This document shows, in pieces, positions 2,429-30,078 of a stretch of 32,000 bases of DNA. How positions within the stretch are numbered: position 1 is the first letter of the stretch; every line of letters starts with the position of its first letter. The notes under the pieces are model-generated. The model did no database searches. It was not told the origin of the DNA and worked only from the letters and a program-made list of their open reading frames with translations. The translations under genes and the position numbers were made by a program. This stretch comes from Methanocaldococcus jannaschii DSM 2661 (lineage in GTDB: Archaea; AGJL01; Methanococci; Methanococcales; Methanocaldococcaceae), in contig NC_000909.1 in NCBI RefSeq assembly GCF_000091665.1, forward strand, positions 1,404,118 to 1,436,117, read 5' to 3'.

Positions 2429-3034
2429 ATGAGAAAATTCCTAATACTATCTATGTTAATCTTCACAACTCTATGTGGCTGTGTTGATTTCTCATCCTCT
2501 AATTCTAACGGTTATTATCATGATAGTTGGAGTTATAATAATTACACTTCTTTTGTAGATACTCATGAACACTACTACGGAAAGGTTGTTAAGGTTGTAG
2601 ATGGAGACACTGTTTATGTTGAAGTTAATGGGGAATTATGGAAGATTAGGCTTTTAGGGGTAGATACTCCAGAAATTCACAAGAGAAACAACCCGTATGA
2701 ATATTATTTATTAAATGGAACACCGATAACAGATACAAAATACTTAAAAGAATGGGGCTATAAAGCTAAGCATTTTGCAGAAAAAGAACTTAAAAATAAA
2801 ACAGTTATAATTGTCTTTGATAATGAAGCCCCAAAGAAAGATAAATATGGGAGATATTTAGCATACATCTTTATAAATAATAGTAATAATTTAATAAACT
2901 TCAATGAAGAGCTTTTAAAGTATGGATATGCAAGGGTTTATATAAGTAATTTTGAGTTAAAGGATGAATTCTTAAATGTTGAGAGGGAAGCTAAAGAAAA
3001 TAGAGTGGGTTTATGGAATTGGAGCAATAACTAA
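2429..3034 (+). CDS. Secreted/lipoprotein staphylococcal-nuclease (thermonuclease)-like nuclease
   Basis: Signal peptide ending in lipobox-like LCGC. SNase hallmarks VVDGDTV, RLLGVDTPE, GRYLAYI, EREAKENRVGLW. The ATG at 2429 follows GAGGGAGG; the listed ORF starts at 2411. Confidence 0.85.
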   Translation: MRKFLILSMLIFTTLCGCVDFSSSNSNGYYHDSWSYNNYTSFVDTHEHYYGKVVKVVDGDTVYVEVNGELWKIRLLGVDTPEIHKRNNPYEYYLLNGTPITDTKYLKEWGYKAKHFAEKELKNKTVIIVFDNEAPKKDKYGRYLAYIFINNSNNLINFNEELLKYGYARVYISNFELKDEFLNVEREAKENRVGLWNWSNN

Positions 3035-3040
3035 GGGGAG

Positions 3041-3193
3041 TTTTATGGAAGGGAGAACTTATGCATTATCATGAACCTTTAATAAAGGTTCATCAAAATG
3101 AGTGGGGCTTCACTTCGTTCAGCTCCACTTTATTTATAGCTACAAAAGTAATGGAGTGATTTTTTATGGAAGGAAAAGCCTATGCATTAGCAT
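3041..3193. repeat. Palindromic repeat element (MJRE-like) flanked by a 32-bp imperfect direct duplication of the aroK SD/start region
   Basis: 3041-3072 vs 3162-3193 are 27/32 identical without gaps. Perfect hairpin ATGAACCTTT-AAT-AAAGGTTCAT at 3071-3093; hairpin AGTGGGGCT-(11 nt)-AGCTCCACT at 3101-3129. Confidence 0.8.
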
Positions 3194-4014
3194 CTGGGAC
3201 AATAATAAACGCTATAGCAACAGGTAAGGGTTCAGCTTTTGGATTAGATTTAAAGGTTTATGCCAAAGTTAAACTTATAGATGATGGAAAAAACAAAATA
3301 GAGGGTAAAGTTTTAGATAATCCAAACATTAAGCCAAATTTAATAGTAAGATGTGTCAAAAATACTTTAGATTATTTTGGGCTGAATTACTCTGCCTATG
3401 TTGAAACAAAGACAGAAATTCCTATAAAATCTGGATTGAGTAGTAGTTCAGCCACTTCTAACGCAGTTGTTTTGGCAACATTTGATGCATTAGGGGAAAA
3501 AATAGATGATGAGCTAATATTAAATTTAGGGATAAAATCAAGTTTTGATGAAAAATTAACTGTTACTGGAGCTTATGATGATGCTACTGCATCATACTAT
3601 GGGGGAATAACAATAACTGACAATATAGAAAGAAAAATTTTAAAAAGAGATAAGATGAGAGATGATTTAAACGTCTTAATATTAATTCCAAATTTAGAAA
3701 AGAATGTTGATGTAAATAGAATGAAGCTAATAAAGGATTATGTTGAAATTGCCTTTAATGAGGCTATAAATGGAAACTATTTCAAAGCTTTATTTTTAAA
3801 TGGAATTCTTTATGCATCAGCTTTAAACTTTCCAACAAACATAGCAATAGACGCATTAGATGCTGGGGCAATAACAGCCGGTTTATCTGGAACAGGTCCA
3901 AGTTATATAGCCATGGTTGAAGATGAAAATGTTGAAAAGGTAAAAGAAAAATTAAATAGGTATGGAAAGGTTATTTTAACTAAACCAAACAATGATGGAG
4001 CTTCTATTTACTAA
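3166..4014 (+). CDS. aroK: Archaeal GHMP-family shikimate kinase
   Basis: GHMP kinase phosphate-binding motif [11 protein letters not shown]. Length and sequence match the non-orthologous archaeal shikimate kinase first identified in M. jannaschii. Confidence 0.9.
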
Positions 4015-4158: not shown

Positions 4159-7100
4159 ATGAAAATCACATTTTATATGTGGGCATCTTATTGCTCAATA
4201 TTAAAAAAGGCGTTGGATGAGCTTAAAAAAGAAGGAGTAGATGTTGAATATAAAATATATTCTAACAGAAATCCAATTGATGATGAGTTTTTAGAGGATG
4301 CAAAAGATTATGATTTAGTTTTTATTTATAGAACATCATCAGATGATATTGATTTAGAGAAGATAAAGAAGTTCAATGAAAACGTTATAGTTGTTGCCCA
4401 AGACCCAAACTTTTGGAATTCTGAAAAATCTGCTAAATGTTATTTATTTATAACTTATGGAGGTTTAGATAACTTCAAAAATATGGTTTTATATCTAATG
4501 GGTAAAGATAAAGATGTTGTAAAGCATCCATTCCAAGGTATCTATTATAGAGGCAAAATTTATGAAGAATTAGAAGAATTTTTAAAAGACGTTGAGTTTA
4601 ATAAAAAATATACGGTGGGGATTTTATTCTCAAGGCATTATTTAGTTAATGATGATATGGATGTTATTGAGAAGCTATTAAATAGATTGGACAAAGAATT
4701 CAATGTAATTCCAGTATTTTCCTATGGAGCTAAGTGTGAGGATTTAAATGCCTTAGGTAGTGGAGAGAGTGTTTTAAAATACTTCCTTAAAGATGATAAG
4801 CCAATAATAGACGCCTTAATCAATCTACTGTCATTTCCATTGGGAACTGTAAAAGATAAGGCTAATTTAAACAAAATCTCTGGAGTAGAGATACTTAAAA
4901 AGTTAGATGTGCCAGTATTTCATCCAATAATGAGTTATTATAAAAGCTATGAGGATTGGAAAAAAGATGAGCAAGGTTTATCTGCAGATATTGGTTGGAC
5001 TATAGCCTTGCCAGAGTTTGAAGGGGTTATAGAACCGATTATCATTGGAACTACTGAAAATGAGAACGGCTTAGAGAAGAAGTTTGGTATTGAGGAAAGG
5101 ATAGACAAAGTTGTTAGAAGAATAAAGAGATGGATTGAGCTAAAATACAAACCTAAGAAAGATAGAAAGGTTATATTTATATTGCATAACAATGCATGTG
5201 CATCTGTTGAGGCAACTGTGGGAAGTGCTGCCCATTTAGACAGCTTTCAAAGTGTTATAAACATAATGAAGAAGTTGAAGGAAGAGGGCTACTATGTAGA
5301 AAATATTCCAGAAAATGGAGAGGAGTTAGCTCAGCTAATTATGCAGAAGAAGGCAATTTCAGAGTTTAGATGGACTACCGTAAATGAGATTATAGCTAAA
5401 GGAGGATATCTATACTTAATGGATGAAGAAGAGTATTATGAATACTTCAACACACTGCCAGAGAATGTAAAAAATAAAATTTTAGAAACATGGGGAGATT
5501 TAAATGGTAAAGACATCCCAGCAGGAATGATTTATAAAGTTAATGGAAAAAATAAGATAGTTATAACTGGTTTAAAGTTTGGGAATGTCTATGTTTGTGT
5601 TCAACCAAAAAGAGGATGTGCTGGGGCAAGATGTGATGGAAGAGTTTGTAAGATATTACACGACCCTTATTGCCCACCAACTCATCAATATATAGCATCA
5701 TATAAATATTTTAATGACATTGCTGACATAATAATCCACGTTGGTACTCATGGAACTTTGGAATTTTTACCTGGAAAAAACGTTGGTTTATCTAACGAAT
5801 GCTATCCAGACATCTGTATTGGAGATATTCCTCATCTCTATATTTATAATTCAGATAATCCACCAGAGGGAACTATAGCAAAGAGAAGAAGCTATGCAAC
5901 TATTATTGATCACATGCAAACAGTTATGGTTGATGCATTTTATGAAGAGTTGGAGACATTAGATAGCTATATAGAGGAGTATTTAAAGGAGATGGATGCT
6001 TCAAGAAGGCATCAGTTAGAGCATTTGATAGTTGAGGAAGTTAAAAAAACCAATTTATTGAAAATTAAAGAAAAAATTGAGAAGATTGAAAAAGAAGGGA
6101 AAATCCATGAGAACTTTAAAGAGATATTTGATGAGCTAAGAGATATCTTAGAGATGATAAAGAACTCGAAGTGCAATGATGGAATGCATATCTTTGGAGA
6201 ACTTCCAAGTGGAGAGAAGAGAGTTGAGTTTATAAAGAGTATTTTAGAGGCGATATTCATCCAGAATAATACTATGAATAGTAAAAGGAGAGGCATTGCC
6301 GAGCGAAGCGAGGCAATGCATCCGGGGTATCCCAATAGGGGGCTTCCCCCTATGGAGTTTGAGTATAAAGATAAAAACCTAAAGAAGAAAGTTTCAGATG
6401 TATTAAATGGAAAGAGTATAGAAGATAAAAAATTAGAGGAGAAGATTAAGGATATCAATGAGAGAATTGAAAAATCAGATGAGATTGGCTCTTTGTTGAG
6501 AGGCATTGATGCCAAATATATAGAGCCAGGGCCTTCTGGGCTGATAACAAGAGGAAACTATGATATCTTACCAACAGGAAGGAACTTTTACTCATTAGAC
6601 CCATACCGAATTCCTACGAAATCTGCTTATAGAGTAGGGGTTTTATTAGCTGAAAAATTAATTAATAGATATTTAGAGGAGGAGGGAAGGTATCCTGAAA
6701 ACATAGCTCTATATTGGATGGCATCTGATATAATGTGGGCTGATGGGGAAGGAATGGGGATGATTTTATATCTATTGGGTGTTAAGCCAGTTTATAGAGG
6801 AGGGAGAGTTGTTGGCTTAGAAGTTATTCCATTGGAGGAGTTGGGAAGACCAAGGATTGATGTAACCATTAGAGTTAGTGGAATAACAAGGGATATGTTC
6901 CCAAACTGCATAGAGCTTGTTGATGAGGCAATAATGAAAGTTGCTAACTTAGATGAGCCATTGGAGATGAACTTTGTAAAGAAGCATGTTGTTGAGAACT
7001 TAAATAAAGGCCTATCATTTAGAGAATCAACATTTAGAATCTTCTGCTCTCCTCCTGGCACTTATGGAAATGGTGTTAAATATGCAGTGTATGCAAGTGC

Positions 7101-7839: not shown

Positions 7840-8049
7840 ATTGGACTATTTTTATTTTTGTAAAATTTTTACCTTTTATATAACTTTAAAAAATTAAATT
7901 ACTTATTTATAATATTTTAGCTGGATAATATTTTCACAATTTGTATTATTATCAATAATTTCCATAGCCAAAATTAAAAATTGTAAAGATAGAAAATTTA
8001 TATAAGCATGACAAGCATAAGAATTTTTATAAAGTTCTACGGTGGGACT

Positions 8050-8616
8050 ATGAGGAAATTTTTAATATTTTTAATATTTTTGAGTGTTTTAGGATGTGGC
8101 ATAACCATTAGCGGATGCATTGGAGGAAAGAATGTTGAAGAGATTCAAAATATGCAAGAACAGGTAGTGCAACAACAACAAAATGAAAACCAGGAAGAAT
8201 ATCAAAATGAAGATGAAGGGGTTGATTACAATTCAATAAGGGATGTCCAGCCAATAGGAACTGCAAAAGAAGCTGATGAGAAAATTAGACCAATATTAAA
8301 TGAAGTGTTTGGAGAAGTTAAATTAATGGAATATGTTTCAACAGGAAAGCAAAATGAAGGAGAGTCTATTGTATTGACTTATGTTCCAAAGAGAAAAATA
8401 ACCACTAATGATTTTGAAAAGCTGAATGAGGCAATAAAAAAATCTGGATATTTTGAAAGTAGTGGAGGAATAGCAGGAGGAGGGCAATCTGGAGAAGGAA
8501 TGGTGTTATGGTATGTTTCAAAAGACAATAAATCTGCAATACAAATAATTTTATATCCAGATACAAATGAAATCGTTGTTGGATACTACAAAGGTAAGAT
8601 ATACTCTTCACAATAA
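8050..8616 (+). CDS. Putative lipoprotein, Gln/Glu-rich N-terminal linker
   Basis: MRKFLIFLIFLSVLGCG signal with lipobox-like Cys. GGTGGG lies upstream of the ATG at 8050; the listed ORF starts at 8008. No catalytic motif recognised. Confidence 0.7.
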   Translation: MRKFLIFLIFLSVLGCGITISGCIGGKNVEEIQNMQEQVVQQQQNENQEEYQNEDEGVDYNSIRDVQPIGTAKEADEKIRPILNEVFGEVKLMEYVSTGKQNEGESIVLTYVPKRKITTNDFEKLNEAIKKSGYFESSGGIAGGGQSGEGMVLWYVSKDNKSAIQIILYPDTNEIVVGYYKGKIYSSQ

Positions 8617-8661
8617 AATTCATCCTTTTTATAAAAATTTACGTATATATAGGTGATATTT

Positions 8662-8985
8662 ATGGGAAAAACTTCACTCGGTTTAGATGAAAATATTGAA
8701 GGAGCGTTATGTTATCTATTTGGAGTAATAACTGGAATATTGTTCTATATATTAGAAAAGGAAAGTAAATTTGTTAAATTTCATGCAGTTCAATCCATAA
8801 TACTATTCGGAGGACTTTGGGTTTTATCAATAATATTGGCATTTATACCCTATGGATGGATGCTAAGTGGTCTGGTAAATTTGGCAGCTTTTATTTTGTG
8901 GATTGTGTGTATGTATAAGGCATACAAAGGAGAGAAGTTTAAGCTTCCAGTAATTGGAGATATAGCAGAGCAGTATTCACAATAA
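8662..8985 (+). CDS. Small integral membrane protein (three predicted TM helices)
   Basis: Hydrophobic segments in a 107-aa ORF. AGGTGA lies 5 nt upstream of the ATG at 8662; the listed ORF starts at GTG 8653. Confidence 0.65.
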   Translation: MGKTSLGLDENIEGALCYLFGVITGILFYILEKESKFVKFHAVQSIILFGGLWVLSIILAFIPYGWMLSGLVNLAAFILWIVCMYKAYKGEKFKLPVIGDIAEQYSQ

Positions 8986-10822: not shown

Positions 10823-11596
10823 ATGGAAAAACCAGTTATATGTAGAATAAAAGAAATAATAGAAGAAAGCCCAACAGTAAAAACATTTGTAGTAGATAAA
10901 GATTTTGATTTTAAGCCGGGACAGTTTGCAATGCTTTGGCTTCCGGGAGTTGATGAAAAACCATTTGGATTTTCTTCTAAAAATAGTTTTAGTGTTGCAA
11001 GAGTTGGAGAATTTACCAAAAAAATGCATGAACTAAAAGAAGGAGATATAATAGGAGTTAGAGGGCCTTATGGAACATATTTTGAGCCAATAGGAGATAA
11101 GGTTTTGGCAGTTGCTGGAGGTATTGGAGCTGCACCAATTATAACAGCAGTTGAAGAATTTTCAAAGCAGGGAATTGAAATAACAACCATATTAGGGGCG
11201 AGAACTAAAGAAGAGTTATTATTTTTGGATAGATTTGAAAAAGTTAGCAGATTAGAGATTTGCACAGATGATGGTAGTTTTGGATTTAAAGGTTTTACAA
11301 CTGAAAAAATGAAAGAAGTCCTTAAAGAAGAGAAATTTGATTTAATTATAACTTGTGGGCCAGAAATAATGATGAAAAAGGTTGTAGAAATAGCAAATGA
11401 ATATAATATTCCAGTTCAGGTTTCAATGGAGAGGTATATGAAGTGTGGTATAGGTATTTGTGGGCAGTGTTGTGTAGATGATGAGGGACTTTGTGTTTGT
11501 AAGGATGGGCCAGTATTTTGGGGAGATAAGTTGAAATTTATTAGAGAATTTGGGAAGTATAAGAGAGATGCAAGCGGTAAGAAGATTTATTATTAA
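10823..11596 (+). CDS. pyrK: PyrK-type FAD/NAD-binding, [2Fe-2S] electron-transfer subunit (dihydroorotate dehydrogenase B partner-like)
   Basis: Ferredoxin-reductase-type FAD/NAD module (AGGIGAAPI) plus C-terminal cluster CGIGICGQCC..C..C. Size (257 aa) fits PyrK. Confidence 0.7.
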   Translation: MEKPVICRIKEIIEESPTVKTFVVDKDFDFKPGQFAMLWLPGVDEKPFGFSSKNSFSVARVGEFTKKMHELKEGDIIGVRGPYGTYFEPIGDKVLAVAGGIGAAPIITAVEEFSKQGIEITTILGARTKEELLFLDRFEKVSRLEICTDDGSFGFKGFTTEKMKEVLKEEKFDLIITCGPEIMMKKVVEIANEYNIPVQVSMERYMKCGIGICGQCCVDDEGLCVCKDGPVFWGDKLKFIREFGKYKRDASGKKIYY

Positions 11597-11682
11597 CATT
11601 ATAAGGTATTGATATTTAGTTTTGATCAACCTTTTCTAAAAAGGTTGTTCGGGGAGTATATAGAGATGCGAGTGGAAAATTG
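11549..11682. repeat. Palindromic element flanked by a ~34-bp direct duplication of the pyrK 3' end (right copy frameshifted relic)
   Basis: 11549-11583 vs 11648-11681 align with one 1-nt indel. Both encode ..RDASGK... Hairpin CAACCTTTT-CTA-AAAAGGTTG at 11627-11647. Confidence 0.7.
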
Positions 11683-11717
11683 TTAAATTTTAAATAAAAT
11701 AGCTACAAGGGATTAAT

Positions 11718-12863
11718 ATGATAAAATTTGGAGAAGCAGTTTTGGGAAATGAAATTAAGGCAATAGTTAATGTTGCATTAGGGAAAGGAGAGTTAATTGA
11801 GAATACCTTTACAAATGCTTTAACAAGAGGAAATTGTGTTTTTGCCAATTTAAGACCTAATTTAATAGTTAAACCATTAACCTTAGTTGTTCCAAGGCAT
11901 AATATAGAGAGTGAGATACAGGATGAGCTATTTCAGGGAGTTATTCAGTATGCAGTTGCCAAGGCAGTTGCTGATTTAGATTTAGATGAAGATTTAAAGG
12001 TTGTTGTCTCTGTTAATGTCCCAGAGGTTCCAATAACCAATTTAAATAAAAGAAAACTCTTCCAATACTTCTATGCCTCAGCAAAGTTAGCTATAAACAG
12101 AGCTTTAAATGAATATCCTTCAAAAGAGAAGGTAAAGAAAGAGAAATATAGAGCTTTGCATCCATTAGTTGGATTTAGGGATGTTAGATTGGAGTATCCT
12201 CCATATCTACAAATTGCTTTGGATGTCCCAACTATGGAGAATTTGGAATTTTTGTTACAAACAATTCCAAATAGCGACCACATCATCTTAGAGGCTGGAA
12301 CACCACTAATTAAAAAGTTTGGTTTAGAGGTTATTGAAATAATGAGAGAATATTTTGATGGCTTTATTGTTGCTGATTTAAAAACCTTAGACACTGGAAG
12401 GGTTGAGGTAAGATTGGCATTTGAAGCAACAGCTAATGCAGTGGCAATAAGTGGAGTAGCACCAAAATCAACAATAATTAAAGCTATCCACGAATGTCAA
12501 AAATGTGGTTTAATCAGCTATTTGGATATGATGAACGTCTCTGAACCTCAAAAATTATATGATTCATTAAAATTAAAGCCAGATGTTGTTATCTTGCATA
12601 GAGGGATTGATGAGGAGACATTTGGAATTAAAAAGGAATGGAAATTTAAGGAAAACTGCTTATTAGCAATTGCTGGAGGAGTTGGTGTGGAGAATGTTGA
12701 AGAGCTTTTAAAAGAATATCAAATATTAATCGTTGGTAGAGCAATTACAAAATCAAAAGACCCAGGAAGAGTAATTAGGATGTTTATAAACAAGATGGGT
12801 TATGATATAGACACTTATAGGCTTTATTTTGATGAGGATGAGGATATAGGGGAGGAATTATGA
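11718..12863 (+). CDS. fae-hps: Bifunctional formaldehyde-activating enzyme / 3-hexulose-6-phosphate synthase (Fae-Hps)
   Basis: N-terminal Fae-like domain fused to an OMP-decarboxylase-fold HPS domain (LQIALD, ADLKTLDTG, IAGGVG). 381 aa as in the characterised M. jannaschii fusion. Confidence 0.9.
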   Translation: MIKFGEAVLGNEIKAIVNVALGKGELIENTFTNALTRGNCVFANLRPNLIVKPLTLVVPRHNIESEIQDELFQGVIQYAVAKAVADLDLDEDLKVVVSVNVPEVPITNLNKRKLFQYFYASAKLAINRALNEYPSKEKVKKEKYRALHPLVGFRDVRLEYPPYLQIALDVPTMENLEFLLQTIPNSDHIILEAGTPLIKKFGLEVIEIMREYFDGFIVADLKTLDTGRVEVRLAFEATANAVAISGVAPKSTIIKAIHECQKCGLISYLDMMNVSEPQKLYDSLKLKPDVVILHRGIDEETFGIKKEWKFKENCLLAIAGGVGVENVEELLKEYQILIVGRAITKSKDPGRVIRMFINKMGYDIDTYRLYFDEDEDIGEEL

Positions 12864-23364: not shown

Positions 23365-24021
23365 ATGGAAATTGGAATCAGCATAGAGGCAGAAAATAAA
23401 GTAGGAGTTTTGCACAAACTTACGGGAATTCTTTCTGAATTGGGAGGGAATATAACCTATACTCAACAATTCATTAAAGATGATGGTAAAATTGGATTTA
23501 TTTATATGGAAGTTGAAGGGATTAAAGATATTGAGGAGCTAAAGAGAAGAATGGAGAGTTGTGAGTGTGTAAAGAGCTTTGAAATTCACAGCTCATTAAA
23601 AAAGATTTATGGTAAGAGAGTTATTATTATTGGTGGAGGGGCACAAGTTGCTGAAGTTGCGAGAGGGGCGATAAGTGAGGCAGACAGGCATAATATAAGA
23701 GGGGAGAGAATTAGCGTAGATACTCTTCCAATAGTTGGTGAAGAAAATTTATATGAGGCTGTTAAAGCTGTAGCAACTCTTCCACGAGTAGGAATTTTAG
23801 TTTTAGCTGGCTCTTTAATGGGAGGGAAGATAACTGAAGCAGTTAAAGAATTAAAGGAAAAGACTGGCATTCCCGTGATAAGCTTAAAGATGTTTGGCTC
23901 TGTTCCTAAGGTTGCTGATTTGGTTGTTGGAGACCCATTGCAGGCAGGGGTTTTAGCTGTTATGGCTATTGCTGAAACAGCAAAATTTGATATAAATAAG
24001 GTTAAAGGTAGGGTGCTATAA
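23365..24021 (+). CDS. ACT-domain protein with a C-terminal conserved domain of unknown function
   Basis: N-terminal ACT-like segment (ENKVGVLHKLTGILSELGGNI). The C-terminal 130 aa are Gly/Ala/Val-rich (IIIGGGAQVAE...). Confidence 0.7.
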   Translation: MEIGISIEAENKVGVLHKLTGILSELGGNITYTQQFIKDDGKIGFIYMEVEGIKDIEELKRRMESCECVKSFEIHSSLKKIYGKRVIIIGGGAQVAEVARGAISEADRHNIRGERISVDTLPIVGEENLYEAVKAVATLPRVGILVLAGSLMGGKITEAVKELKEKTGIPVISLKMFGSVPKVADLVVGDPLQAGVLAVMAIAETAKFDINKVKGRVL

Positions 24022-24162
24022 AGATAATTTAATAATTTTTGATGAAACCGAAGCGTTAGCTTTGGGTTATGAAACTCCATGATTTTCATTTAATTTTTTC
24101 CTATTAATTTTCTCCTAAAAAGTTTCTTTAACATAAATAAGGTTAAAGGGAGAGCTCTATGA
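23992..24162. repeat. Palindromic element (24022-24132) flanked by a 30-bp direct duplication of the ACT-gene end / ade start junction
   Basis: 23992-24021 vs 24133-24162 are 25/30 identical ungapped (first 17 identical). Both read INKVKGR(V/A)L-stop. Nested hairpins at 24046-24068 and 24069-24089. Confidence 0.85.
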
Positions 24163-25829
24163 TTGTCTTCAAAAATACAAAGATTATTGATGTATATACT
24201 GGAGAGGTTGTTAAAGGAAATGTTGCAGTTGAGAGGGATAAAATATCCTTTGTGGATTTAAATGATGAAATTGATAAGATAATTGAAAAAATAAAGGAGG
24301 ATGTTAAAGTTATTGACTTAAAAGGAAAATATTTATCTCCAACATTTATAGATGGGCATATACATATAGAATCTTCCCATCTCATCCCATCAGAGTTTGA
24401 GAAATTTGTATTAAAAAGCGGAGTTAGCAAAGTAGTTATAGACCCGCATGAAATAGCAAATATTGCTGGAAAAGAAGGAATTTTGTTTATGTTGAATGAT
24501 GCCAAAATTTTAGATGTCTATGTTATGCTTCCTTCCTGTGTTCCAGCTACAAACTTAGAAACAAGTGGAGCTGAGATTACAGCAGAGAATATTGAAGAAC
24601 TCATTCTTTTAGATAATGTCTTAGGTTTAGGAGAGGTTATGAACTATCCTGCAGTAATAAATGAAGATGAAGAGATGTTAAAAAAGATAGAAGTAGCTAA
24701 AAAATACAATAAATTGATAGATGGGCATTGTCCAAAATTAAAAGGTTGGGAGTTAAACAAATATATATCTCATGGAATAATGAGCGACCATGAGAGTGTT
24801 GATGAAGATGAGGCATTAGAAAAGCTTAGATTGGGATTAAAATTAATGATTAGAGAAGGAACAGCATCAAAAAACATCTATTTGCTTAATATATGCAAAA
24901 AGATAAAAGATTTTAGGAATATAATGTTGGTTAGTGATGACGTCTGTATTAAAGATTTAGACGGCTACATGTTAAATATTTTAAGAAAAGCCACAAACTA
25001 TGTTTCTCCAATTGAAGCTATTCAAATGGTTACAATAAATCCAGCAAATTATTTTGGGTTTGATGTAGGAATTAAAGCTGGAAATGAGGCAAGTTTTGTA
25101 ATCTTTGAAGATTTAGACAATTTTAAAGTTTATAACATTGTCATAAAAGGAAGATTCTTAGATGATGTTTTAAATGAACTAAATAAAAATAAAAAAAGAA
25201 AAATTCCCGAAAAGCTCATGAATACTTTAAAATACCAATACAAAAACGAAGGTGATTTTTTAATTAAAGGGATTGATTATAAGGAGAGAGATGGATTTAT
25301 TAGAGTAATAAAACCATTAAAAGATTCTCTAATAACTGAAGAGCTAATATTTAGCACTGAAGAAATAAAAATATTACTGAATGAAAATGCTATAAATAAA
25401 ATCTTCGTTATAGAGAGGCATAAAAATACTGGAAATATTGGAAAGGGTTTAATATACAACTTCTTGGAGGAGGGAGCTTTAGCCTCTTCCTATGCTCACG
25501 ATTCTCATAATGTAATAGCCATAGGAAATAATGAGAAAGATTTAGCCTTAGCTGTAAATAAATTAAAAGATATTGGTGGAGGATTTATAGCTGCTAAGGA
25601 TGGGGAAGTTGTTGAATATCTTCCTCTACCAGTTGGAGGGATAATGGGAGATGATGGAAAATACATAGCTGAGAAGATTAATGCTTTGTATAAAAAAATA
25701 GAAGGTTGGAGTTCTTTTGAGAACCCATTTTTAAGTATGAGCTTTTTCTCTCTCCCTGTGATTCCTGAGCTAAAAATAACTGATAAAGGTTTGGTTAAAG
25801 ATATGCAGTTGGTTGATTTATTTATTTAG
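24159..25829 (+). CDS. ade: Adenine deaminase
   Basis: Amidohydrolase metal site [20 protein letters not shown], and the two-domain 556-aa architecture of adenine deaminase. Confidence 0.9.
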
Positions 25830-29384: not shown

Positions 29385-29385
29385 T

Positions 29386-29397
29386 CTTGCTTTTTTA
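29386..29397 (+). terminator. Oligo-T terminator candidate after the GTPase gene
   Basis: CTTGCTTTTTT immediately after the stop codon. Confidence 0.35.
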
Positions 29398-29592
29398 GAG
29401 TTTATCCTTGTTTTAATGGACTATCGATTTAAACCCTTACTTTTTGCTCTTATTTTATACCTAAACTCCTATATATAGCTTTCTATTTTTATCCAAATTT
29501 TCTTAATACATGATTAAAACCTTTAAAAGATTAAGAAGAAATCTCAATAATTAGATAATGTTTAATATAATCCAAGATCTATTTAACCGTTT

Positions 29593-29659
29593 CCCGTTTC
29601 CATAGCTTACCATAGCATTTAATAACTTACTATACGAATCGGTAAGCTATGGAAATGGG
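29593..29659. repeat. Long hairpin: 19-bp stem (one G-T pair) with 29-nt loop
   Basis: CCCGTTTCCATAGCTTACC (29593-29611) pairs with GGTAAGCTATGGAAATGGG (29641-29659); the central 15 bp are perfect. It lies in a GC-enriched intergenic block. Confidence 0.7.
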
Positions 29660-29894
29660 TTGTCCTCAGCCCATAGCTTCATCGGGAACACCATTCCCTT
29701 CACTATAAGTTCATCAGACTTAGGACTGAACAGATACAGCCCCAAAATCCAAACTTCGTTAATATTTAGTATCAACATTTCGTCTCGAAGGCAAAGCCTC
29801 CTCATTAACATTATGATATAACAATACATATTACTATTTTAATAAAAAAACAATATTTATATTGTGATATTGTTTATTATGATATGCTACTGTA

Positions 29895-29988
29895 AGTTAT
29901 AGAAAATTAAAAACTGTTTCGAACCCTCCTTTTGGAAGACGTTTAAATATTCCATATTGATTTTAATAACTTTTCTAAAGACCGTATA
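29895..29988. repeat. Degenerate second copy of the 9070-9177 MITE-like element
   Basis: Core 29921-29948 vs 9111-9138 is 21/28 identical ungapped (GAAC..C..TTTGGAAG.CGTT.AAAT). Left edge AGTTATAG vs AGTTATATAG. Terminal inverted repeats decayed. Confidence 0.45.
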
Positions 29989-30078
29989 TATAGATTTATA
30001 TATAGATTTATGATTTCTATGGAGTTATTTTGAAGTTATTTTAGAGACATAAAAAATATAATAATAAAATATTATTGT

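Follow-up and report, generated by a model that had tools for sequence, protein, structure and literature searches.

The palindromic repeats MJRE1-3 of Methanocaldococcus jannaschii are said to have been described by Suyama, Lathe and Bork in 2005 as repeats of ~100 nt that lie mostly between genes, with a few in frame in genes. To our knowledge, the abstract of that report and the papers that cite it describe neither long flanking duplications nor a spread beyond M. jannaschii. In bacteria, the intergenic, non-coding REP/BIME/REPIN elements, which are mobilized by RAYT (IS200/IS605-like) nucleases, place a conserved short tail, GTAG in REP, beside a hairpin of 20-35 nt, and no target duplication is known for REP elements. 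Rickettsia palindromic elements (RPE) are palindromic selfish repeats that may sit in frame within housekeeping genes (PMC2996958). Long target duplications of variable length are known from IS1634 and IS1549, elements of a type frequent in Euryarchaeota, and their mechanism is unexplained (PMC2266710); these insertion sequences are 1.5-2 kb long and have a DDE transposase and terminal inverted repeats. In Cas1-Cas2 spacer integration, the insert also comes to lie between two copies of a duplicated stretch.

A window of 32,000 nt of the M. jannaschii genome was analyzed, in which two encoded proteins are identical to MJ1446 and MJ1440 of that species. Four element copies were found in it, three intergenic and one in cobN. 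By description, rather than by consensus, these window inserts are MJRE elements: the organism is the same, the inserts are multicopy palindromic repeats, and the in-frame copy in cobN fits. They resemble REP and BIME elements in being intergenic and non-coding, in the tail beside a hairpin, and in the use of modules in both direct and inverted orientation; however, the tail is TTTTGAT, the flanking repeats of 18-81 nt have no known counterpart in REP elements, and no RAYT gene was seen in the flanks. The length and variability of these repeats also depart from the short, fixed duplication of 2-10 bp that characterizes MITEs. RPE are bacterial and belong to another sequence family, and long target duplications have not been reported for them. 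The likeness to IS1634 and IS1549 lies in the long, variable duplications, whereas the present elements are 27-190 nt long, non-coding and often a single asymmetric hairpin. Cas1-Cas2 integration differs from what is seen here, where duplications vary in length, each insert is a hairpin particular to the family and ordinary gene junctions are the targets.

Results

Hairpin modules in the window

A hairpin scan of the window located stems at 3071-3093, 6293-6319, 6335-6353 and 11627-11647. All sequences quoted in an earlier, sequence-only reading of this DNA were present where it had placed them. They included the AACCTTT/AAAGGTT stem with ATCAAAA that is common to 3069-3098 and to the reverse complement of 11620-11649, with the base of the stem swapped from G:C to C:G; the loops GAACGAAGTGA (3110-3120, minus strand) and GAGCGAAGCGA (6301-6311), which are identical at 9/11 positions; and CCGAAGCG, found at 24048-24055. 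The proposal that the inserts form one family held: they are one superfamily built of hairpin modules, designated H, B1, B2 and C, that recur in related genomes. Module H consists of a TTTTGAT tail and a stem of 9-10 bp, B1 and B2 are GC-rich hairpins, and C is a tail with a hairpin. The same modules occurred in different orders in different species. After B2 came C in some elements, that of cobN among them, and H in others (contigs L151, L156, L074 and L055), and the order in M. fervens was inverted H, then B1, then C.

Target duplication at three gene junctions

Locus 1 is the junction of the SNase and shikimate kinase genes. Its left target copy (3025-3072, plus strand) holds the last codons and stop codon of SNase, a ribosome-binding site and the decayed first 9 codons of shikimate kinase; the right copy (3143-3193, plus strand) holds the working ribosome-binding site and the start of shikimate kinase (gene 3166-4014). 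Gapped alignment of the two copies, 48 and 51 nt long, gave a score of 45 (shuffle mean 18, maximum 35), and the ungapped repeat, 3041-3072 versus 3162-3193, was identical at 27/32 positions with a score of 39 (shuffle maximum 24). The foot of an inverted hairpin H (3069-3101), which reads TTTTGAT-G-AACCTTT-ATT-AAAGGTT-C on the minus strand, adjoins the left copy, and a covariance model of H matched 3071-3101 on that strand at 34.7 bits (E 1.5e-5). It is followed on the plus strand by hairpin B1 (3101-3129; AGTGGGGCT / TCACTTCGTTC / AGCTCCACT, with a G.T wobble on the plus strand), homologues of which were found in FS406-22, in M. fervens (L001, 22964-22992) and in a MAG (L055). A ragged, AT-rich insert end, TTATTTATAGCTA (3130-3142, plus strand), lies between B1 and the right target copy and is missing at empty sites. 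The locus is filled in M. jannaschii, where the gap between the two genes is 131 nt, and in FS406-22 (135 nt), which carries the same hairpins with compensatory differences. It is empty in M. bathoardescens, M. fervens and the Methanocaldococcus contig L002, in which the spacer is 10-13 nt and the single-copy junction aligns with 3025-3072. Within the target copies, 3060-3066 and 3181-3187 share the sequence GCATTA in M. jannaschii, and their FS406-22 counterparts (L165) share GCGTTA. This apparent homogenization within each genome suggests that gene conversion may have acted between the repeats.

At locus 2, the pyrK/fae-hps junction, the insert (11616-11647, plus strand) is only 32 nt long and consists of TTAG and hairpin H (TTTTGAT-C-AACCTTTT-CTA-AAAAGGTT-G), which the covariance model matched at 50.4 bits (11617-11649; E 3e-9). 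The left target copy (11549-11615, plus strand) carries the working 3' end and stop codon of pyrK and a copy of the spacer and ribosome-binding site, and the right copy (11648-11719, plus strand) carries a frameshifted relic of the ancestral pyrK end and the working fae-hps leader. In gapped alignment these copies span 67 and 72 nt and are unambiguous only over the first ~33 nt; the part beyond is backed by AAGGTATTGATAT versus AAGGGATTAATAT, and by AAGGGATTGACAT in Methanocaldococcus sp. 10A. The gene end of sp. 10A, AGTGGAAAAATTGTTAAATTTTAA, matches the right target copy of M. jannaschii. Thus, the right copy is the old gene end, now frameshifted, and the left copy now closes pyrK. The locus is empty in sp. 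10A (spacer 22 nt) and in Methanotorris (spacer 13 nt). M. fervens carries another H variant at this site, ATTGAT-G-AAACTTTT...AAAAGTTT-C, which differs from that of M. jannaschii by two double changes that preserve pairing. The empty sites of relatives at loci 1 and 2 therefore show that the inserts there are insertions flanked by duplicated target.

An exact 10-mer, ATAGCTACAA, was shared by locus 1 (3136-3145) and locus 2 (11699-11708), in each case with the start of the downstream gene 20-30 nt further on, and the observed number of near matches to it was never reached by shuffles. Its occurrence at locus 2 falls within what was the ancestral spacer, and the one at locus 1 may be left over from module C.

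Locus 3 lies between an ACT/DUF5612 gene (23365-24021) and the adenine deaminase gene (24159-25829). The left target copy (23986-24019, plus strand) is the 3' end of the upstream gene and holds its stop codon, and the right copy (24127-24160, plus strand) supplies adenine deaminase with its ribosome-binding site and ATG, so that both copies are in use. They are 34 nt long with 28 identical positions and score 38-44 against a shuffle maximum of 24-36. The insert (24020-24126, plus strand) is a decayed composite with a TTTTTGATGAAAC tail, inner hairpins at 24046-24067 and about 24069-24090, and the remains of a closing hairpin. The covariance model of H matched it weakly (24034-24071; 12.9 bits, E about 2), and the insert was assigned to the family on its end-to-end resemblance to composites in the related metagenome contigs L155 and L160, in which two hairpins lie inside an H variant, instead of on this score. 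An empty counterpart of locus 3 was not obtained: there is no synteny at this place in M. fervens and M. vulcanius, and in Methanocaldococcus sp. 16A the repeats are the same but enclose another sequence. The duplication at locus 3 is therefore not securely tied to the present hairpin. The pair CTATAA/CTATGA at this locus suggests, by its sequence, a trace of an ancestral ATGA stop/start overlap.

The flanking repeats of 30, 32 and ~34 bp proposed in the sequence-only reading were thus real and above chance, and the length of 34 nt at locus 3 was confirmed, but those at loci 1 and 2 proved longer (48-51 and 67-72 nt).

The copy in cobN

The fourth insert (6247-6357, plus strand) lies in frame in cobN and adds 108 nt (36 codons), comprising ~42 nt of unassigned sequence, module B2 (6290-6323), and the tail and hairpin of module C (6324-6355). 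It is missing from 12 orthologues and present in one metagenome cobN (L146), and its B2-C unit was found again at about 10 other loci. The reading frame is kept by the element, which makes it a coding-region copy as in MJRE. Gapped alignment revealed no flanking repeat above shuffles at this insert.

Two other regions of the window were recorded. Between cobN and the FEN1/XPG gene, 8008-8985 holds two ORFs, one with no Pfam match and the other a DUF4870 protein, and in a contig of a close relative (L004) XPG follows cobN after 140 nt; the region looks like a lineage-specific insertion of ~1.2 kb. In the intergenic region 29385-30078 (694 nt), a segment on the minus strand (29400-29434) resembles a CRISPR repeat family below threshold, at 26 bits where the cut-off is 37. 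The region also has a GC-rich inverted repeat of 19 nt (29593-29611/29641-29659), and may be a solitary CRISPR repeat with a leader-like segment.

Long duplications as a hallmark of the family

Metagenomes were scanned for B2, the cobN-type hairpin, which yielded about 13 independent Methanocaldococcus loci. Of these, 10 had flanking repeats of 25-70 nt, with identities such as 68/69, 54/57, 46/52 and 45/50, and the duplicated stretch was mostly the last 25-65 nt of a gene, including the stop codon, or the 3' end of a tRNA. Among 127 listed H copies from across Archaea, the similarity of left and right flanks exceeded every cross-locus control in 31 and the 95th percentile of the controls in 44. 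Clean cases had repeats of 18-81 nt, many of them perfect or nearly so (38/38, 55/56, 81/81 and 23/23 identical), around inserts of 27-145 nt. Together with 3/3 intergenic copies in the window and 10 of about 13 Methanocaldococcus loci, these 31-44 of 127 copies establish long flanking duplications as a hallmark of the family, as had been proposed. At least two thirds of the 127 pan-archaeal H copies listed had no detectable repeat; such copies may be old or may have been inserted without duplication. The expected clustering of lengths at 30-35 nt was not observed: duplications measured 18-81 nt overall, 25-72 nt in Methanocaldococcus and 22-41 nt within one Methanobacterium genome.

The two ends of the elements differed. 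The hairpin foot is exact, with the right repeat starting 0-6 nt past it in 27 of the 31 copies, and the opposite end is ragged, with the left repeat ending 0-112 nt upstream of TTTTGAT. Junction microhomology in independent events was 0-1 nt, and no target sequence motif was seen at the junctions. The duplicated segments comprised gene 3' ends, gene starts with ribosome-binding sites, and tRNA 3' ends.

At some loci (L084, L028, L116 and L089), the target and hairpin formed arrays in which target copies outnumbered hairpins by one. In L084 (680-960), the upstream gene (...KDKF*) uses the TGA within the TTTTGAT tail as its stop codon, and four tandem target-plus-hairpin units follow.

Hairpin H across Archaea

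The pattern TTTTGATSAACCTTTN{2,7}AAAGGTT was run over 185,579 species genomes, for which about one chance match was estimated. At least 120 stretches were recovered, with 112 archaeal and 8 gut Firmicutes stretches among the matches listed. The archaeal hosts were Methanobacteriales, Methanocellales, Methanosarcinales, Methanophagales, Altiarchaeota, several DPANN phyla, Thaumarchaeota, Bathyarchaeota, Methanomethylicia and Methanocaldococcus. The hairpin TTTTGAT-S-AACCTTT...AAAGGTT-S' is thus not species-specific and is near-unchanged across many archaeal phyla, where conservation of TTTTGAT and the stem bases is by construction, as the pattern required them. Neither gathering nor permissive thresholds gave a match of the hairpin to any Rfam family, no CRISPR-repeat family matched it, and no description of it or of its long duplications was found in the literature searched.

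Structure was maintained by compensatory change. At the position following GGTT, unconstrained by the pattern, the base paired with S in 115 of the 117 distinct copies (82 C:G, 33 G:C, 2 mismatched), a further pair in H changed from C:G to A:T, and 12 B2 variants folded alike. The covariance model, a check that the earlier reading had called for, supported two compensatory pairs in H. That reading had also described conserved loops on covarying stems. Its stem changes are compensatory, but what it took for a loop consists of two G.A mismatches and a GC-GAA-GC mini-hairpin; in other copies of this module, the whole inner stem so formed is swapped for fully Watson-Crick-paired stems with GTAA loops.

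H was also found in several other settings. Copies lay inside tRNA introns in either orientation (L030, L032 and L136) and, in three other genomes, 0-2 nt upstream of the mature 5' end of a tRNA (L096, L117 and L128). In MAGs of gut Clostridia (L027, L070, L076, L082, L087, L107 and L108), H was followed by a conserved GC-rich module (GCGGGGT...GGGGCAGAGCCCC...), an arrangement that suggests a related bacterial composite element. AT-rich viral contigs also carried H (L008, with 2-3 copies, L010, L014 and L017); six other viral matches were one coding sequence and are probably due to chance. Metagenome contigs often stopped at or within elements (the ends of L005 and L140 and the start of L157), L005 ending 9 nt past the pyrK stop codon, and the elements appear to break short-read assemblies.

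Genomic context

All-against-all BLAST of 1066 ORFs from 120 listed stretches returned only housekeeping clusters and no protein family that recurs beside copies. In 8-kb stretches around the 127 copies, no transposase, RAYT, HUH gene or reverse transcriptase was seen in the flanks. Class I aminoacyl-tRNA synthetases, ArgRS and FttA were among the neighbors. In two Methanocaldococcus contigs, a B2-C element occupied the spacer position between degenerate CRISPR repeats at the end of an array (L141, about 1985-2103; L158, about 2000-2230). Either the CRISPR repeat was the duplicated target or the element was acquired in the manner of a spacer.

Discussion

We consider it likely, with a probability of roughly three in four, that these copies are tiny non-autonomous palindromic mobile elements, MJRE and REP-like, that make long target duplications of variable length through an enzyme acting in trans. 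Each element is assembled from interchangeable modules (H, B1, B2 and C). In the proposed mechanism, the trans-supplied enzyme would recognize the folded hairpin and join it with its element to the target, the joining points on the two strands being 20-80 bp apart. Gap filling would then copy the intervening stretch of target and leave long direct repeats. The reaction is polar, with the foot of the terminal hairpin joined exactly and the other end carrying 0-110 nt of further modules or AT-rich filler. Because the duplicated stretch is long enough to span a stop codon, ribosome-binding site and start codon, both neighboring genes would remain intact, which would let copies persist in these compact genomes, where genes abut closely, and at the 3' ends of tRNAs. 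Units of target and hairpin may later grow into short arrays while the spare target copy decays. As a bolder and tentative extension, the TTTTGAT hairpin may mark a new DNA-insertion pathway shared across Archaea, in which DNA ends that lie tens of bases apart would be joined to a 30-nt hairpin by an enzyme that recognizes it, possibly one of host replication or repair instead of a classical transposase, to give the duplication of 20-80 bp with one exact and one ragged end.

A less probable reading is polar copying from the hairpin end. By this account, either an RNA would be reverse-transcribed into a nicked target, as with SINEs, or a single DNA strand, nicked at the hairpin foot by an HUH-type nuclease, would be linked to a free 3' end such as that of a stalled replication fork, after which synthesis would resume further back on the template and re-copy 20-80 nt. 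The elements do show the trait set of a SINE, with an exact 3' end, a truncated or otherwise variable 5' end and a target duplication of variable length, and their clean junctions without a target motif also fit. Copies are also enriched beside genes for tRNAs, aminoacyl-tRNA synthetases, ribosomal protein L3 and aIF5B, and the B2-led composites of Methanocaldococcus run in the direction of the upstream gene in 8/8 tandem gene pairs. Against this stand the lack of a reverse transcriptase or HUH gene near the copies, the random orientation of H relative to flanking genes across Archaea (24 versus 25), and the duplication of gene starts or ends on either strand rather than simply of transcript 3' ends. 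The narrower idea that the duplicated segment is a transcript 3' end copied by template switching was ruled out by the same random orientation and by the duplication of gene starts and antisense tRNA 5' ends.

Movement of MITE-like elements by a DDE transposase of the IS1634/IS1549 type is, in our judgment, unlikely. The sequence-only reading had contrasted the duplications with the 2-15 bp typical of DDE-transposase MITEs; a premise that such enzymes cannot make long ones fails, as the direct repeats of IS1634 and IS1549 vary from 8 to 514 bp and these elements are found preferentially in Euryarchaeota (PMC2266710). Some Methanobacteriaceae copies (L031, L079 and L094) are moreover bounded on both sides by inverted H-like hairpins that enclose another hairpin. 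This arrangement was confined to those copies, however. Inserts made of H only or of B2-C have no terminal inverted repeats: many are one asymmetric unit of 27-33 nt, a TTTTGAT tail and a single hairpin with no second inverted end, and the ends of the B2-C element, GAGGCATTGC... and ...CCCTATGG, are unrelated. The ragged end of the elements and the absence of a recurring DDE transposase near the copies argue in the same direction.

It is very unlikely that no mobile element is involved and that the copies reflect local hairpins subject to replication slippage or template switching, or a vertically conserved regulatory or terminator motif. The target-plus-hairpin arrays would suit slippage, the filler in L072 is an inverted copy of the hairpin tail, and the T runs of the hairpins could terminate archaeal transcription. 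Nevertheless, an identical 27-nt H hairpin occupies unrelated loci in one genome (L021, L072 and L084), and this, together with junctions of 0-1 nt microhomology, fits poorly with the hairpin-induced template switching that the earlier reading had offered. Modules are also reordered between species, presence and absence differ among close relatives, and position and orientation relative to genes are variable. Array growth by slippage after insertion, and secondary use of a copy as a terminator, are possible. A Cas1-like integrase with cuts staggered by one CRISPR-repeat length, the other mechanism floated in the earlier reading, is hardly credible, since duplication lengths that vary about two-fold within one genome fit such a ruler poorly, inserts of 27-190 nt are not spacer-sized and no CRISPR-repeat family matches the hairpin, even though the repeat-insert-repeat layout resembles spacer acquisition and one B2-C element lies between degenerate CRISPR repeats in two contigs.

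For the favored reading, that of small hairpin elements inserted by an enzyme acting in trans, the findings have practical as well as biological consequences. Elements of this kind appear to break metagenome assemblies, and the decayed gene-end copies that they create can mislead annotation. Palindromic repeats of M. jannaschii have been known since 2005; what is added here is that they come with target duplications that are variable and exceed those of ordinary transposons several-fold in length. Such long duplications would explain how an element can settle in a gene junction of 10 nt without harm to either gene. One module is common, nearly base for base, to methanogens, ANME archaea, Altiarchaeota, DPANN, Thaumarchaeota, Bathyarchaeota and a few gut Firmicutes. 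Collectively, these findings provide a concrete handle for finding the enzyme, and the unexplained long duplications of IS1634-type elements may be illuminated as well.
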